The translations under genes and the position numbers were made by a program. A stretch of DNA of 64,000 nt from Omnitrophica bacterium GWA2_41_15 (GTDB lineage Bacteria > Omnitrophota > Gorgyraeia > Ghiorseimicrobiales > Ghiorseimicrobiaceae). The DNA lies in assembly GCA_919902105.1 (NCBI GenBank), contig CAKKQO010000037.1, positions 5,598 to 69,597 on the forward strand, given 5' to 3'. Shown here piece after piece: positions 3,135-30,142 of this stretch. Under the pieces are notes generated by a model. The model did no database searches. It was not told where the DNA came from and worked only from the letters and a program-made list of their open reading frames with translations. How positions within the stretch are numbered: the stretch's first letter is position 1; every line of letters begins with the position of its first letter.

Positions 3135-4064
3135 CTACTTAACAACAACTTCCCATTGTTTTATAAGCTGATTTACCTTAGCCGTGTTCGGATTATCGGC
3201 AAAATACTCATTAACAGCGGCCTTATAAATAAGAGACTGATGACTATTAGTAAGCAGATTGCGTATAATTTCGCTAAAACTAAAAAACGTTCGTTTTTTA
3301 GAATCCGATAGCACCTTTATCCATCCTTTTATACGCTCAAGGAATGACGGCGGCTTTGCAAAAATGCGTGACTGTTCTTGCCAAATCTCTCTATAATAAT
3401 CGCGAAGCTCATTCCATTGCCTGAGCGCCTCATCCAAAGCTAAGATTCTATTCTCAGGTTCTTTAAGAAAAGAGAAAGCCTCGCTAACCTTGTTCTTTAA
3501 AGAGCCGTTACCATTATAAACCCTATTGAATTCTTCTTCTTTTTCAGGATATAGGCTCTTATACCTTCTATTAACTGCTAAGTATGCATTCACTAATTGA
3601 ATATAACCCTTCACGATATCATAATACCTTACAGGCTGGTGGGATGAAGCCTCCCGCCATACCATAAGCTGCTCAACAATACGATTATTCAAGAGCGTCC
3701 ATCCATCCTTCGGTTCAATATCTGCATAAGAATAATCCGGGACCAGCCTTAAAATATCTTTATCTCCCCAGAACACCTTTCCGTATTTTTTTAATTCTAT
3801 GGTAAATATGTATGGTTTTAATCTCTCAAGATGTTTGCTGGTAGTAAACTTTATAGTGATGTTTTTGATAGCTTCGCTATTAGGAACAATTTTAACATTT
3901 TTAACAATTGCAAGGAGCTCTATATCGCTCAGGGTTTCAATCCCCTCTCCCCTTGCAAAACTCCCCACTAAGATCAGAGCCTCAAGATTATCGCCCAGCC
4001 GCCTTGCAATATCTTCCGTTACGCCCTTGATTAACTTCTCTATCTCGTGAGATGTTATAATCAT
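3135..4064 (-). CDS. Nucleotidyltransferase-domain protein (Pol-beta-like NTase fold)
   Basis: LILVGSFARGEGIETLSDIELLAIV matches the GS...[DE]x[DE] minimal nucleotidyltransferase motif. The C-terminal region has no recognised features. Confidence 0.55.
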   Translation of the reverse strand: MIITSHEIEKLIKGVTEDIARRLGDNLEALILVGSFARGEGIETLSDIELLAIVKNVKIVPNSEAIKNITIKFTTSKHLERLKPYIFTIELKKYGKVFWGDKDILRLVPDYSYADIEPKDGWTLLNNRIVEQLMVWREASSHQPVRYYDIVKGYIQLVNAYLAVNRRYKSLYPEKEEEFNRVYNGNGSLKNKVSEAFSFLKEPENRILALDEALRQWNELRDYYREIWQEQSRIFAKPPSFLERIKGWIKVLSDSKKRTFFSFSEIIRNLLTNSHQSLIYKAAVNEYFADNPNTAKVNQLIKQWEVVVK

Positions 4065-4083
4065 TCCTTGATTTGTTGAAATA

Positions 4084-5205
4084 TTACTTATTTACTTGAA
4101 GCCAGATTATATCGTAGCGAACGTTACGGCCCTTGCCGAGTAATTGACGCAAGATTTTTTTATCCAGCATATCCGAAATTTCGCGGAATGCGGTGGCACG
4201 GCTTGTCTTAGTAATACTTACATATTTGCGCGTCGTTAGTCCACCGGTAAAATTACCCGGCCCGGCTTCCAGCATACGGCCAATAACTCTTTTCTGCCGC
4301 TCATTAAGGCCGTCCTGGGCATGCTGATTCCAGAAATCAACCTTTAGAAATACACCCGCAATGATATCGCGCGAATCCTCAATAGATGCCGTCACGCACT
4401 TAATAAACCACAAAAACCATTCCGTCACATCAAGACGGCACCTCTGCACATCCTCAAGGATATTATAGTATTTGTCTCTTGAACGCATAATCTCGGATGA
4501 AACGCTATAAAATCTCACTTTTAATTTTTCATCCTGAGCTAATGCCATATCCGTCAAAGCCCTCGCCAACCGTCCATTCCCATCTTCGTAAGGGTGAATT
4601 GTCAAAAAACGCAAGTGGGCCATGGCCGCGCGCAGGATACCATCTATGCTTCCTTGTGATGACTTCCACCACTTCAGAAAAAGCCGTATCTCCTCATCAA
4701 GACGCTCCTTTGGTAGCGCTTCAAAATGCACCTTTTCCTTGCCGATTGGGCCGGATACTATCTGCATAGGCTCATCGCCCCTTAGCTTTCCAGTCCTTAT
4801 CTTTCTTAATCCGGAATAGCCTGCCGGAAACAGCGCCGCATGCCACCCATTAAGCCGTTCTATCGTCAGGGGCTTATTATGAAAACGGACAGCATCCAGC
4901 AAAACATCCACAAGGCCGTCAATATTCCTGTCATGCGTACCGATACCCTTGGGCAAACCAAGCCTAACGGCAACTGAAGAACGGACTGCGTCCCGATTAA
5001 GCTTCTGTCCCTCGATTTCCGCAGTGCGAATAGTTTCTTCAACCAATACACCAGCCTGAGCTTCAGTTTCAAGCTTAATATCAAGGGACGCAACACGACC
5101 TAACAATTTTCCCTGCAAAACCCTCAACTCACTTAAAGGTTTAAGCAGGACCGCTTCGTCATATTTAAAATCAAACCAATTTTTATGCTCCCAAATGTAT
5201 TTCAT
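4084..5205 (-). CDS. Fic/DOC family protein (AMPylase-type) with an N-terminal DUF4172-like region
   Basis: HPYEDGNGRLARAL matches the canonical Fic motif HPFx[DE]GNGR. GC content looks clearly higher than the flanks by eye (about 45-55% against about 35%). Confidence 0.85.
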   Translation of the reverse strand: MKYIWEHKNWFDFKYDEAVLLKPLSELRVLQGKLLGRVASLDIKLETEAQAGVLVEETIRTAEIEGQKLNRDAVRSSVAVRLGLPKGIGTHDRNIDGLVDVLLDAVRFHNKPLTIERLNGWHAALFPAGYSGLRKIRTGKLRGDEPMQIVSGPIGKEKVHFEALPKERLDEEIRLFLKWWKSSQGSIDGILRAAMAHLRFLTIHPYEDGNGRLARALTDMALAQDEKLKVRFYSVSSEIMRSRDKYYNILEDVQRCRLDVTEWFLWFIKCVTASIEDSRDIIAGVFLKVDFWNQHAQDGLNERQKRVIGRMLEAGPGNFTGGLTTRKYVSITKTSRATAFREISDMLDKKILRQLLGKGRNVRYDIIWLQVNK

Positions 5206-5406
5206 AGGCTTCTCCTGAAGCGATTAGTATGCTTAATCGCTTCAATATTTGATACAATTATACCATTTAATAGCTTCAAATGCAAATTTAAGCAGATAGG
5301 TATTAATTCCTGCAAACACGCCTTTGTCAATAAAATAATGCCGAGTTTATTCATTTTGTTATGCTCAATTATTTCTGAAGGCCCGACAAGCTTGTTTTAA
5401 TGCTAC

Positions 5407-28028: not shown

Positions 28029-28608
28029 TGTATAATCCCTCTTTACGCAGAATTTTGACAAAATGCGATAAATTCTTATTAACTTTTTCTTCCGAAACGT
28101 CATATGAGGCAGTTTCACTAAAACGTTTCAAAAGGATATCTAGGTTAATATCGTGTTTTTTGGTTTTTACCAAAAGCAGACAGTCATCCATATCAGTACT
28201 GCTTGCCCTAAAAAGTTTACTGATGATAAGATCATAATGATTGAGCACCCCCAGATAAATAGATTTAAACTCTTTAATTAGCGCGTGATTGCCTTCTTTA
28301 AGCGGCGATTCCAGCAATTCTGTGGTATGGATTCGTTTTCCTTTGAACAAGTCAAAAATAAAACCCCCGTCTTTTGTCCATCCGGAACCGCTAGCGTTCC
28401 TATAGCCTAAGTCTTGTAAAATACGCAAGAGATAGTCATGTTCTGCTTCGTTGGGCGCTAATAGGTCAATATCTTTTGTGGATTCTTTTATACCTAAAAG
28501 CGTCAGAGCCGTGCCGCCGCAGGCGATCAAATGTATTTTTCGCTTGAGATAGCCATTCCATATAGAAAGCGTATCTAGCAAGCTTTCTTTGTTTATTCTA
28601 TATTCCAT
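28018..28608 (-). CDS. Short AbiEii-like nucleotidyltransferase-fold protein (196 aa)
   Basis: IACGGTALTLLGIKESTKDIDLL carries a GGTAL motif followed by SxKDIDL. Confidence 0.5.
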   Translation of the reverse strand: MEYRINKESLLDTLSIWNGYLKRKIHLIACGGTALTLLGIKESTKDIDLLAPNEAEHDYLLRILQDLGYRNASGSGWTKDGGFIFDLFKGKRIHTTELLESPLKEGNHALIKEFKSIYLGVLNHYDLIISKLFRASSTDMDDCLLLVKTKKHDINLDILLKRFSETASYDVSEEKVNKNLSHFVKILRKEGLYNEK

Positions 28609-28705
28609 ACAATTGTTTGTATAAATTCATACAACTTCTTGTATATAATTATACAACATATTTGATATCTTGTCAAGGTCTTTGCTAGTGGAATCTGAAG
28701 CGCAG

Positions 28706-30142
28706 CTATCTATTAAAATCATCATCCAAACGTTCGATGTCGTCTTCTTCCAAGTAGCTTCCGCTTTGCACTTCCACTATTTTTAACGCAGAGTCTTTAG
28801 GGTTTTCTAAGCGGTGGACGTGCCCGGCAGAGACAAAGATGCTTTCATTGCTGTTAATTAAGCTTACCTTGCCTTCGCAGGTTACTTTTGCTGTGCCTTC
28901 CACCACTACCCAGTGTTCGCTTCTAAACTTATGCCTCTGAAGGCTTAGGCGTTTATGCGGCACTAATTCGATAAGTTTAACCTTATATCCTTTGCCGGTG
29001 TTTATGACCGTGTAGGTTCCCCACGGCCGCTTGACAGTATGCGAGGAAAAATGTTCGTATCCCCCCTTTTTCTTAACGAGCTCTACCATCTGTTTAACAT
29101 CTTCGGCTCTGTCCTTAGCGCAGACCAATAGAGCGTCTTCAGTATCCACAATAATTAGATCTTTAAGGCCTACGGTGGAAATTAAGTGATTTTTGCCTAT
29201 GACAGTAATATCCCTGCTGTTGATGTCAATGGAGTTTGCCTGAATGATGTTTCCGCTCTTGTCTTTAGGCAGAAGCGCATCCAGCGCAGAGAGCGTGCCT
29301 AAATCGCTCCAGCCTAATTTCTCGGCAGGTATGACAACAGTTTGCCTTGATTTTTCCAATACGCCGTAGTCGATAGAGATAGATTCAAACAGAGAATAGG
29401 TCTTATCAATATCAGCGCCATCGCTTACTCTCTTGAGGGCGGTGTATAGTTGCGGAAGGTATCTTTTTAGTTCATCTAAAATAACCCTGGATTTAGCGAT
29501 AAACATTCCGCTGTTCCAGAGGTAGTTTTTGTTTTTGATGAATCTTTGCGCTGTTTTTAAGTCCGGTTTTTCGGTAAATTTTTCAACTTTATAATATTTC
29601 GGATTTCGGCATTCGGATTTCGGATTTATCTTGATATATCCATACCCTGCGGCAGGATATGTTGGCTTTATGCCCAATGTTACGAGGTAGCCCTTATGCG
29701 CGGCTAAAATGGCATTTTTAACCAGCGATTTAAATTTTTCCAGATTAGCGATATGGTGGTCAGCCGGCAGGATTATGAGTAGTGAGTCCGTATCTTTTTT
29801 AATAAGATTAAACGCGGCGAGTCCTATTGCCGGAGCGGTATTTTTTCCCTGAGGCTCTAAGATTATATTTTCTTCTGGGATGCCGAATATAGATATTTGA
29901 TTCTCTAGTTCAAACTTATGCAGGTTGTTAGTTACGATATAAATTCGGTTAGGATTAATTAAAGGGATAATCCGCTTTATAGTCTGCTGAAGTAAGGATT
30001 CTTCGTTATAGAATTTAAGCAGGTGTTTTGGTTCAAGTTGGCGGCTGAGCGGCCAGAATCGGCTGCCTACGCCACCGGCTAATATGACCGCATACATGTT
30101 AGTTTTATTCGTAAGTATCGAGTCGCGAGTATTGCGTGTCAT
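28706..30142 (-). CDS. manC: Mannose-1-phosphate guanylyltransferase / mannose-6-phosphate isomerase (bifunctional, cupin C-terminus)
   Basis: MYAVILAGGVGSRFWPLSR nucleotidyltransferase N-terminus and a cupin-type C-terminus. The true start is probably the M at about 30097. Confidence 0.85.
   Translation of the reverse strand: MTRNTRDSILTNKTNMYAVILAGGVGSRFWPLSRQLEPKHLLKFYNEESLLQQTIKRIIPLINPNRIYIVTNNLHKFELENQISIFGIPEENIILEPQGKNTAPAIGLAAFNLIKKDTDSLLIILPADHHIANLEKFKSLVKNAILAAHKGYLVTLGIKPTYPAAGYGYIKINPKSECRNPKYYKVEKFTEKPDLKTAQRFIKNKNYLWNSGMFIAKSRVILDELKRYLPQLYTALKRVSDGADIDKTYSLFESISIDYGVLEKSRQTVVIPAEKLGWSDLGTLSALDALLPKDKSGNIIQANSIDINSRDITVIGKNHLISTVGLKDLIIVDTEDALLVCAKDRAEDVKQMVELVKKKGGYEHFSSHTVKRPWGTYTVINTGKGYKVKLIELVPHKRLSLQRHKFRSEHWVVVEGTAKVTCEGKVSLINSNESIFVSAGHVHRLENPKDSALKIVEVQSGSYLEEDDIERLDDDFNR

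Follow-up and report, generated by a model that had tools for sequence, protein, structure and literature searches.

How do small toxin-antitoxin units and other accessory genes come to sit between the genes of a polysaccharide locus, if no recombinase accompanies them? This question is raised by a stretch of 64,000 nucleotides (nt) from Omnitrophica bacterium GWA2_41_15 (contig CAKKQO010000037.1 of assembly GCA_919902105.1, positions 5,598 to 69,597 of the forward strand), which is called the window here. Within its single polysaccharide locus, five cassettes each lie between the working end of a neighbouring gene and a relic copy of the same end that is 54-105 nt long and 79-94% identical. 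The five comprise an AbiEii/AbiEi pair, a MntA/HepT pair, a sulfatase, a second AbiE pair and a DUF6036 nucleotidyltransferase (NTase) with its partner. We consider it fairly probable that these repeats are scars of homologous recombination, presumably of the Campbell type, between diverged alleles of the same gene end.

The repeats were detected by self-BLAST of the window together with a direct-repeat search. In the direction of transcription, the bracketed cassettes and their flanking gene ends are as follows:

28710..28774, minus strand: working 3' end of ManC, joined to the rest of the gene (28706-30142; Pfam NTP_transferase/MannoseP_isomer), ending ...DDDFNR-stop
27366..28681, minus strand: cassette of the DUF6036 nucleotidyltransferase and its partner (Pfam), ~1.31 kb
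27243..27307, minus strand: relic of the ManC 3' end, 91% identical to 28710-28774 over 65 nt (E 1e-16), frame ending ...DDDFKRIPVNV-stop
22698..22798, minus strand: working 3' end of CysN (gene 22695-23984), tail ...ITNIE-stop
21179..22685, minus strand: AbiEi_2/AbiEii_2 cassette, beginning ~10 nt past the CysN stop codon (Pfam AbiEii, NCBIfam AbiEi)
21065..21165, minus strand: relic of the CysN 3' end, 82% identical to 22698-22798 over 101 nt (E 2e-22), in frame, ending ...ITNTEGIS-TAA
17855..17959, minus strand: relic of the 5' end of unk392 (392 aa, function unassigned), 79% identical to 16315-16419 over 105 nt (E 2e-20), downstream of the stop codon (18047) of the phosphodiesterase PDE585
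16432..17850, minus strand: sulfatase segment (Pfam Sulfatase)
16315..16419, minus strand: working 5' end of unk392 (gene 15244-16422)
13274..13333, minus strand: relic 2 of the GT2_B 5' end, 90% identical to 10699-10784 over 60 nt (ATG plus ~57 nt), starting 12 nt past the GT2_A stop codon (13341)
12335..13214, plus strand: MntA/HepT cassette, the only one in opposite orientation (Pfam Polbeta/NTP_transf_2 and HepT-like)
12224..12309, minus strand: relic 1 of the GT2_B 5' end, 94% identical to 10699-10784 over 86 nt (ATG plus 83 nt; E 1e-27)
10780..12220, minus strand: AbiEii_1/AbiEi_1 cassette (Pfam)
10699..10784, minus strand: working 5' end of GT2_B (gene 9782-10783)

The initial annotation had listed six such cassettes, including one with a Fic gene, and had given 75-97% as the range of repeat identity. 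Self-BLAST and the repeat search recovered every repeat pair of this earlier list, and the gene content (Fic, AbiEii/AbiEi twice, MntA/HepT, sulfatase, DUF6036 plus partner) was confirmed by Pfam. The Fic case did not hold. Its repeat (3726-3760 versus 5439-5473; 35 nt, 100% identical, E 3e-8) is a patch of codons ~102-113 within the accessory gene NTase309 and not a host-gene end, and the second copy is part of a decayed internal fragment, derived from an NTase309 paralog (5293-5474), which covers amino acids ~102-162 with a 20-codon deletion. The measured identities are therefore 79-94%, plus the identical patch. Two further feature lines describe the accessory cluster in which the patch lies, and a third a degraded seventh instance at PRK/Udk, which was not on the earlier list:

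3135..6637, minus strand: accessory cluster with NTase309 (3135-4064), Fic (4084-5205) and the decayed NTase309-like fragment (5293-5474)
5531..6509, minus strand: NTP_transf_8/DUF6788 pair of the same cluster, with operators at 6523-6637
7266..7646, minus strand: PRK/Udk site, with a relic of the P-loop 5' region (7612-7646) 80% identical to 7266-7300

At the latter site, the relic follows directly after the stop codon of GT2-GT4, while ~270 nt of decayed DNA (7340-7611) separate it from the start of the working PRK gene at 7339. By tblastn the two copies read LVAIAGPSACG and LIVVTGPSACG, and a remnant resembling a Fic C-terminus lies in between.

The repeats are not a chance outcome, since their E-values range from 1e-27 to 3e-8 and none appeared in 20 shuffles, which settles the significance check that the initial annotation had proposed. 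Direct-repeat pairs of at least 35 nt at 0.8-2.6 kb spacing number seven in bases 1-32000 and one in 32001-64000, the latter being two paralogous ketoacyl-synthase genes, while the 20 shuffled sequences gave 0. The spacing of the repeats in the window is 1020-1713 nt. A chimeric joining of strain variants during assembly of the metagenome-assembled genome (MAG) is hardly conceivable as their source. Logan contigs L001-L005 and the ENA contig L028, from six other assemblies, match the window at 99.8-100% and span the junctions between cassette, relic and neighbouring gene; contigs identical to the window derive from Hainich groundwater assemblies. As the junctions are seen in independent assemblies, they are not an assembly artefact. 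In addition, cassette ends and gene interiors have no k-mers in common that could cause a misjoin, and equivalent structures occur in unrelated MAGs. What might be taken as a sign of misassembly is that two independent contigs break at repeats: L028 starts at 12316, 7 nt upstream of relic 1, and L001 starts at 28752, inside the working ManC 3' copy. Such breaks hint at assembler trouble or a heterogeneous population, and they could stem from filled and empty variants that coexist in that population.

Which of the two copies is the resident one? The two copies are homologous up to the start or stop codon, and cassette DNA begins precisely there. At the 3' ends the original junction with the gene that follows is held by the relic, not by the working copy. 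The frame of the ManC relic extends 8 nt into Wzm (start codon 27231), and the TAA of the relic CysN overlaps the ATG of the phosphodiesterase PDE426 (21053) as TAATG. The tails differ accordingly, with ...DFNR-stop in the working ManC versus ...DFKRIPVNV-stop in the relic, and ...ITNIE-stop versus ...ITNTEGIS-stop in CysN. At the 5' ends the relic holds the junction with the upstream gene, and at GT2_B the stop codon of AbiEi_1 overlaps the start codon of the working gene (ATGA).

The empty state of one site was found in relatives, as the initial annotation had suggested to check. In the loci L025 (JGI Ga0209541_10001495) and L035 (GCA_030681595.1), CysD, CysN and the phosphodiesterase gene are contiguous, without an AbiE pair and without a repeat. 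CysN of these loci is 72% (L025) and 88% (L035) identical to that of the window at the amino acid (aa) level, and CysD of L035 is 95% identical. The native CysN tail of L035 (...ITNTE-stop) resembles the relic of the window and not its working copy. Thus the relic would hold the resident tail, while the working tail arrived with the cassette. A metagenome scan with PDE585 returned only three loci (best match 55% aa), which served as the empty site but held no strain-level relatives, and an exact-protein look-up of PDE426 gave no record.

The nature of the differences between working and relic copies is the second line of evidence. Across five pairs, mismatches fall 8/7/36 on first, second and third codon positions (binomial p=6e-8), and the ratio of nonsynonymous to synonymous divergence (dN/dS) is 0.05 for CysN, 0.10 for unk392, 0.10 for ManC and 0 for GT2_B relic 2. 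In the CysN pair, 13 of 16 differences are at third positions, and all four differences between GT2_B relic 2 and the working copy are synonymous. Frameshifts or internal stop codons are absent from the relics (0 cases). Altogether 63% of the differences are synonymous, whereas ~33% would be expected for duplication in situ followed by neutral decay (p=1.7e-5). As the differences are mostly synonymous, the codon-level pattern indicates that the two copies diverged as working genes under purifying selection in separate lineages and were brought together later.

This result bears on both mechanisms offered by the initial annotation. The first, a cassette that carries a copy of the host gene end and inserts by recombination, agrees with the synonymous bias and with relics that keep the native junction and a native-type C-terminal tail. 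The second, an unrecognised insertion process that duplicates the gene end, is not supported by the synonymous share. More generally, one might think of a transposition-like or repair process that leaves a very long target-site duplication, or of a gene end that was duplicated in tandem and later took up a cassette between its copies. Each insert does lie between direct repeats, and some copies differ little or not at all (94% identity in the window, 98% in L035, 100% for the 35-nt patch). Nevertheless, we regard such a process as very improbable: the differences are mainly synonymous and the relics are free of frameshifts, the tail of the working copy departs from the native tail kept by relic and relatives, repeat lengths are irregular, and neither terminal inverted repeats nor a transposase were found. 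Across the window and its relatives the repeats measure 33-125 nt and are 79-98% identical. On the grounds of this irregular length and identity, the synonymous bias and the lack of a transposase in the units, a transposon or insertion sequence with target-site duplication was rejected as a candidate.

The divergence between the copies also changes how their identity is to be read. The synonymous divergence (dS) between copies ranges from 0.06 to 1.4; for scale, CysN of the window and of L035 differ by a dS of 0.80. Since the copies diverged before their union, percent identity would reflect the distance between donor and recipient and not the age of the insertion. The spread of identities had been taken to suggest events of different ages, and this interpretation is not sustained.

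What are the inserted units themselves? Of the five best matches to sigma-70-type promoters in the 10-29 kb region, four mark the 5' edges of the four toxin-antitoxin cassettes. The DUF6036 cassette has TTGACA-17-TATAAT at 28676-28648 (scan score 12/12) with palindromic operators at 28617-28656, the AbiE_2 cassette TTGACA-16-TATACT with TG at 22685-22658 (11/12), the MntA/HepT cassette a consensus promoter at 12335-12364 (12/12), and the AbiE_1 cassette TTGAAA-17-TATAAT at 12220-12192 with an operator palindrome within the spacer. By these features the toxin-antitoxin cassettes qualify as complete, autonomous transcription units that reach from a consensus promoter/operator to a stop codon. 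The assignment of the AbiE and MntA/HepT pairs to type IV and type VII toxin-antitoxin systems agrees with the paired NTase and AbiEi, the paired MntA and HepT (Pfam AbiEii, AbiEi_4, Polbeta/NTP_transf_2 and HepT-like; NCBIfam AbiEi), and the operators within the promoters. The sulfatase segment has no promoter of its own. Its 5' edge (~17815-17850) encodes the last ~11 codons (...KNKLEELGYID-stop) of another gene of the alkaline-phosphatase superfamily, with the C-terminal motif L..LGY(I/M)-stop that PDE585 and the sulfatase also have. It therefore looks like a chunk of another polysaccharide locus and not like a selfish cassette, and this remnant of a foreign upstream gene implies that incoming pieces can be ordinary chunks of another locus.

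The DUF6036 cassette allowed its limits to be compared in several surroundings. In L035 it lies between ManC and a relic of the ManC 3' end (98% identical to L035's own ManC), with one extra gene in between. In L040 and L042 it lies upstream of ManC between two copies of a 36-nt stretch of the ManC 5' end, with the ATG of the relic overlapping the stop codon of the preceding gene. In L037, L039 and L043 it is found between two other genes without any repeat. The initial annotation had proposed to look for the same cassette with other flanks, and this is what these loci contain: a ManC 3' end, a ManC 5' end, or no repeat. Among the window, L035, L037, L039 and L040, the homology of the cassette runs from CTTGA (-35 box) to the stop codon of its second gene. 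Given that these limits coincide in several contexts, the cassette is, as far as aligned homology can tell, a discrete promoter-to-stop unit of ~1.3 kb found in three or more contexts. Between 27366-28608 of the window and 3645-4887 of L035 the cassette shows a dS of 0.44 and 87% aa identity, while the host genes of the two loci have a dS of 0.80 (CysN) and 1.04 (CysD) or 71% aa identity (ManC). This lower divergence of the cassette suggests exchange after the two lineages had split.

Gene-end-bracketed cassettes recur in other Omnitrophota loci with other genes. A MntA-like/HEPN cassette in L037 is flanked by 123 nt of the 3' end of an ABC_tran (ABC-transporter ATPase) gene, an AbiE pair in L032 by a 41-nt gene end, and L044 and L032 contain further gene-end or flanking repeats around cassettes. 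A scan of viral contigs with DUF6036 and AbiEii_1 found no relatives. Some of these arrays hold additional features. The operator sequence of AbiE_1 recurs in L035 (94%) and L032. In L035, a gene of 260 aa (4962-5829) with weak similarity to the cobamide-remodelling phosphodiesterase CbiR lies behind an AbiE-type promoter/operator that is 94% identical to 12196-12230 of the window, so that an AbiE promoter appears to drive an unrelated gene. Dense sets of differing short palindromic elements, such as CCACCTCCGAGGTGG, GTCATTCCCGAATGTTCTAATCGGGAATCC and CACTTCCGAAGTGCAC, lie between cassettes in other Omnitrophota loci (L032 1330-1640, 4650-4900, 6480-6900 and 7920-8130; L035 4896-4936), and L032 has partial duplicates of a HepT cassette (254 nt, 98%). 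To judge from these elements and partial copies, the cassette arrays in L032 and L035 are being rearranged through palindromic repeats.

Do the cassettes carry, or respond to, a site-specific recombinase? Their proteins are NTases, AbiEi, HepT, Fic or sulfatase (Pfam, NCBIfam), and neither a transposase nor terminal inverted repeats were found. Neither the cassettes nor the window open reading frames (ORFs) scanned against Pfam encode a tyrosine or serine recombinase, and no recombinase at all lies within 3-29 kb; the sole transposase of the window is a Y1 gene at 40858-41523, outside the locus. The statement that no integrase, transposase or attC-like motif lies inside or beside the cassettes was thus borne out by Pfam, NCBIfam and an inverted-repeat scan. 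The proposed search for a short boundary motif yielded no motif or hairpin common to different cassettes, only cassette-specific promoter operators, and no imperfect palindrome at cassette 3' ends. An integron array was rejected, as no IntI was found among the Pfam-scanned window ORFs and no attC-like palindrome at cassette ends, and the cassettes begin with consensus promoters.

Integrative elements that target gene ends and bring a replacement end are well known, such as e14 and phage 21 at icd and the islands at tRNA and tmRNA genes. The repeats could accordingly be the attL and attR of miniature islands that lack a recombinase, are moved in trans and each bring a replacement gene end. The geometry is indeed that of gene-end-restoring elements, with direct repeats, a replacement end that differs mainly by silent substitutions, a displaced relic on the far side and a gene that still functions, and the cassette ends are discrete. 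We nonetheless hold this explanation to be improbable. Besides the missing integrase, at least five different gene ends serve as targets, 5' as well as 3', for which several site specificities would be needed; one and the same DUF6036 cassette has a ManC 3' end, a ManC 5' end or nothing as its bracket; and the repeats vary from 33 to 125 nt and have no core in common. Furthermore, the inserts are single toxin-antitoxin operons, unlike the prophages or islands of the known systems.

The type of crossover could be addressed with one pair of related loci. L037 and L039 are collinear at 89.6% identity until 15 nt before the stop codon of ABC_tran. Past this gene, L037 has its MntA-like/HEPN cassette and then the relic of the last 123 nt of ABC_tran. 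If informative sites are marked F where L039 agrees with the working copy of L037 and R where it agrees with the relic, the pattern is FFFRFFFRFF/RRRRRRRRRR (maximum chi-square 13.3, permutation p=0.001). L039 thus sides with the working copy over the 5' part and with the relic over the 3' part. Within the relic of L037, the 5' part that is foreign encodes an identical peptide despite 13 nucleotide differences in 81. In this locus pair, the two copies of L037 are reciprocal hybrids of native and foreign sequence, the outcome expected of a single crossover with a molecule consisting of a foreign gene end and the cassette.

Such a hybrid relic also speaks to homology-facilitated illegitimate recombination, which is known from natural transformation of Acinetobacter, Streptococcus pneumoniae and Pseudomonas stutzeri. 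There, one end is anchored by homology and the other is joined non-homologously, a scheme to which the sulfatase segment fits. However, its classical products usually delete or replace recipient DNA and do not duplicate it. One-sided illegitimate joining would moreover leave a wholly native relic and is therefore disfavoured by the mosaic in L037.

A different view of the relics starts from the genes behind them. Relics might belong to incoming modules of host genes which are exchanged by recombination within ManC, CysN, ABC_tran or the N-termini of GT2 genes; only recombinants that keep a toxin-antitoxin cassette already present behind the conserved gene would survive, and the incoming gene end would be left behind the cassette and refreshed at later swaps. 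Several observations fit. Behind the ManC relic lie Wzm and Wzt in the window versus PS_pyruv_trans and others in L035, and L037 and L039 diverge fully past ABC_tran. The ManC relics of the window and L035 are 88% identical, well above neutral expectation (p<=5e-5), with extra upstream similarity common to both, and the two ManC copies within each genome share lineage-specific variants. Identity to L035 also falls from 88% to 71% aa over the CysN/PDE426 junction. As an account of the repeats, however, module swapping seems unlikely to us. It requires an illegitimate joint exactly at the cassette end every time, and it explains neither the relics of the 5' type, which remain beside the upstream gene although the cassette adjoins the working start, nor the reciprocal hybrid in L037, nor the origin of the first relic. 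It is rather a complement of homologous integration than a true alternative to it.

Homologous integration of a gene end together with a cassette would proceed as follows. An accessory unit would come with a short stretch of foreign DNA, ~1.0-1.7 kb long here and as much as 2.3 kb in relatives, and the same piece would bring the adjoining end of a conserved neighbour gene from the donor lineage. It would enter the resident gene end by recombination over 33-125 nt of homology, in the most economical form by a Campbell-type single crossover of a circularised fragment of foreign gene end and cassette. The product would be the resident gene with a hybrid end, the cassette, a second hybrid end and the neighbour; the gene would remain intact, and the overlap with the neighbour would be kept on the relic. 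Loss through recombination between the repeats might be countered by toxin-antitoxin addiction, so that mainly addictive or useful inserts (such as the sulfatase) persist, which would explain the predominance of toxin-antitoxin units. The same repeats would permit re-excision as a circle and onward spread. The relic could further serve as a homologous landing pad when downstream modules are swapped, and relics would thereby stay fresh-looking, being repeatedly overwritten by conversion from the working copy or by module exchange with the relic as an arm. The decayed NTase309 fragment and the PRK remnant might exemplify relics that were not refreshed. The circular intermediate, the dependence on RecA, stabilisation by addiction and the route of DNA transfer are what we infer from the products.

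The comparison with Campbell-type insertion-duplication, the integration of circular DNA that carries a chromosomal fragment by a single crossover, is close. In both, a direct duplication of the homologous stretch flanks the insert (at five clear sites and one degraded site of the window, and in L035, L037, L040/L042 and L032), the gene is kept only if the fragment includes the gene end, and recombination between the repeats would reverse the insertion. Reciprocal hybrids, the form that a single crossover gives to the two copies, were seen in L037 compared with L039. In contrast to the laboratory process, the events here are natural and recurrent in an uncultured phylum, the arms are very short (33-125 nt) and diverged (79-98% identical), and the inserts are of 1-2.3 kb, mostly toxin-antitoxin units, without replicon or vector, on a circle whose existence is deduced.

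Several points weigh against this interpretation. Homology arms of 33-60 nt come close to the minimum that a RecA-dependent crossover requires, and the first formation of each fragment of gene end and cassette requires an illegitimate joint. The sharp promoter-to-stop limits of the cassette in three contexts would not be expected from random fragment ends. The downstream genes differ at two relics (window versus L035 at ManC, L037 versus L039 at ABC_tran), so swapped host-gene modules, and not the cassette, may have brought some of the relics. The reciprocal mosaic stems from one related locus pair only, the outgroup L043 gave the native tail type only and did not reproduce the 5' half of the mosaic, and for the CysN pair of the window the three-way site pattern with L035 is interleaved without a crossover point. 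Neither a circular form nor a strain-level empty site nor a near-identical donor turned up in the searches; the best non-self match of AbiEii_1 is 71% identical, so no donor can be named. Finally, exact look-ups of Wzm and GT2_B gave the filled configuration only, from the same groundwater population.

One might go a step further and speculate that the cassettes are themselves mobile elements that need no recombinase. They would be promoter-to-stop addiction modules that use a piece of a conserved gene (ManC, CysN, GT2 or ABC_tran) as a homing arm, excise as a circle, re-integrate harmlessly into the same gene end in other lineages and be retained by post-segregational killing. We put this idea forward tentatively, as a possibility that we would not yet rely on.

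Two other known systems share parts of the picture. Minimal mobile elements of Neisseria are cassettes swapped between conserved flanking genes by homologous recombination. As here, small accessory cassettes without recombinase lie between conserved genes and are spread by host recombination; unlike here, double crossovers take place in full-length flanking genes and leave no duplicated gene end. The gene cassettes of integrons include toxin-antitoxin cassettes in chromosomal integrons and likewise form arrays of small, mostly co-oriented accessory cassettes, often toxin-antitoxin pairs. In contrast, IntI, attI and attC are missing here, the cassettes have strong promoters of their own and they are interleaved with essential genes of the locus. 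A literature search found no description of toxin-antitoxin cassettes bracketed by gene ends; a preprint on lateral transfer in Omnitrophota provided background only.

The polysaccharide locus that received these units covers bases ~800-34000 on the minus strand (Pfam), in a window with a G+C content of 39%. Its Wzt is 78% identical to that of an Omnitrophica MAG, and several window proteins are on record at NCBI as proteins of Omnitrophota MAGs. In the direction of transcription, with accessory units in parentheses, the order is Poly_export, a Wzz-like gene, two P-loop ATPases, ManC, (DUF6036 NTase and partner), Wzm, Wzt, CysD, (a four-helix-bundle 'IVP' gene), CysN, (AbiEi/AbiEii), two phosphodiesterases, (sulfatase), unk392, a radical-SAM gene, GT2_A, (MntA/HepT, opposite strand), (AbiEii/AbiEi), GT2_B, GT2-GT4, PRK/Udk, (NTP_transf_8/DUF6788), (Fic), (NTase309) and a GT4-phosphodiesterase. 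Four enzymes of the alkaline-phosphatase superfamily are encoded (806-3127, 16432-17832, 18047-19804 and 19773-21053), three of the phosphodiesterase type and one sulfatase, and a C-terminal L..LGY motif is common to at least three of them (sulfatase, PDE585 and GT4-phosphodiesterase). Four such enzymes along with CysD and CysN in one locus point to a sulfated or phosphodiester-modified polysaccharide.

Insertions of other kinds are present as well. The IVP gene (23981-24355; '23S rRNA intervening-sequence protein', PF05635/TIGR02436) sits exactly between CysD and CysN and is absent from this position in L025 and L035. Its surroundings (23916-24410) contain inverted heptamer arrays, GTTCGTT x4 and AACGAAG x3.4 (23931-23959 and 24372-24402), which pair as a long stem around the ORF in the predicted RNA fold (z = -2.5), similar to rRNA intervening sequences. 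The downstream array is translated as an N-terminal extension of CysN of 18 aa, and the CysN ATG overlaps the IVP stop codon. A third array of a related heptamer (TTAGTTC x4.9, 3084-3117) lies where the GT4-phosphodiesterase ORF begins, just past the stop codon of NTase309, and may be the remnant of another IVP-type insertion. Outside the locus, the Y1 transposase gene (IS200-like, RAYT-type) is enclosed in a region (40823-41561) with two inverted, perfect copies of a repetitive extragenic palindromic (REP) hairpin (CCATGTAGACC-TACGC-GGTCTACATGG). Four further copies (35850, 44514, 48069 and 50171) occupy intergenic gaps of neighbouring lipid and fatty-acid operons, and none was found in the polysaccharide locus.

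Taken together, the arrival of toxin-antitoxin or defence cassettes in bacterial operons without a recombinase is poorly documented, and this locus provides a readable record of it, with five fresh and two decayed scars in 26 kb, matching empty sites, and one cassette that recurs in several surroundings. This record likely favours recombination by the host between homologous gene-end arms that are very short and diverged, and addiction is the likely stabiliser. As this mechanism is assembled from known processes, it should surprise specialists only moderately. If general, it would explain why such cassettes are found at module junctions of polysaccharide loci, it would make the percent identity of flanking repeats unfit as a measure of age, and pairs of a gene end and its relic would become a searchable signature of recombinase-free cassette insertion in metagenomes. 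Should the cassettes indeed use gene pieces as homing arms, this would represent a general mode by which selfish genes spread in Omnitrophota and perhaps in other uncultured phyla.

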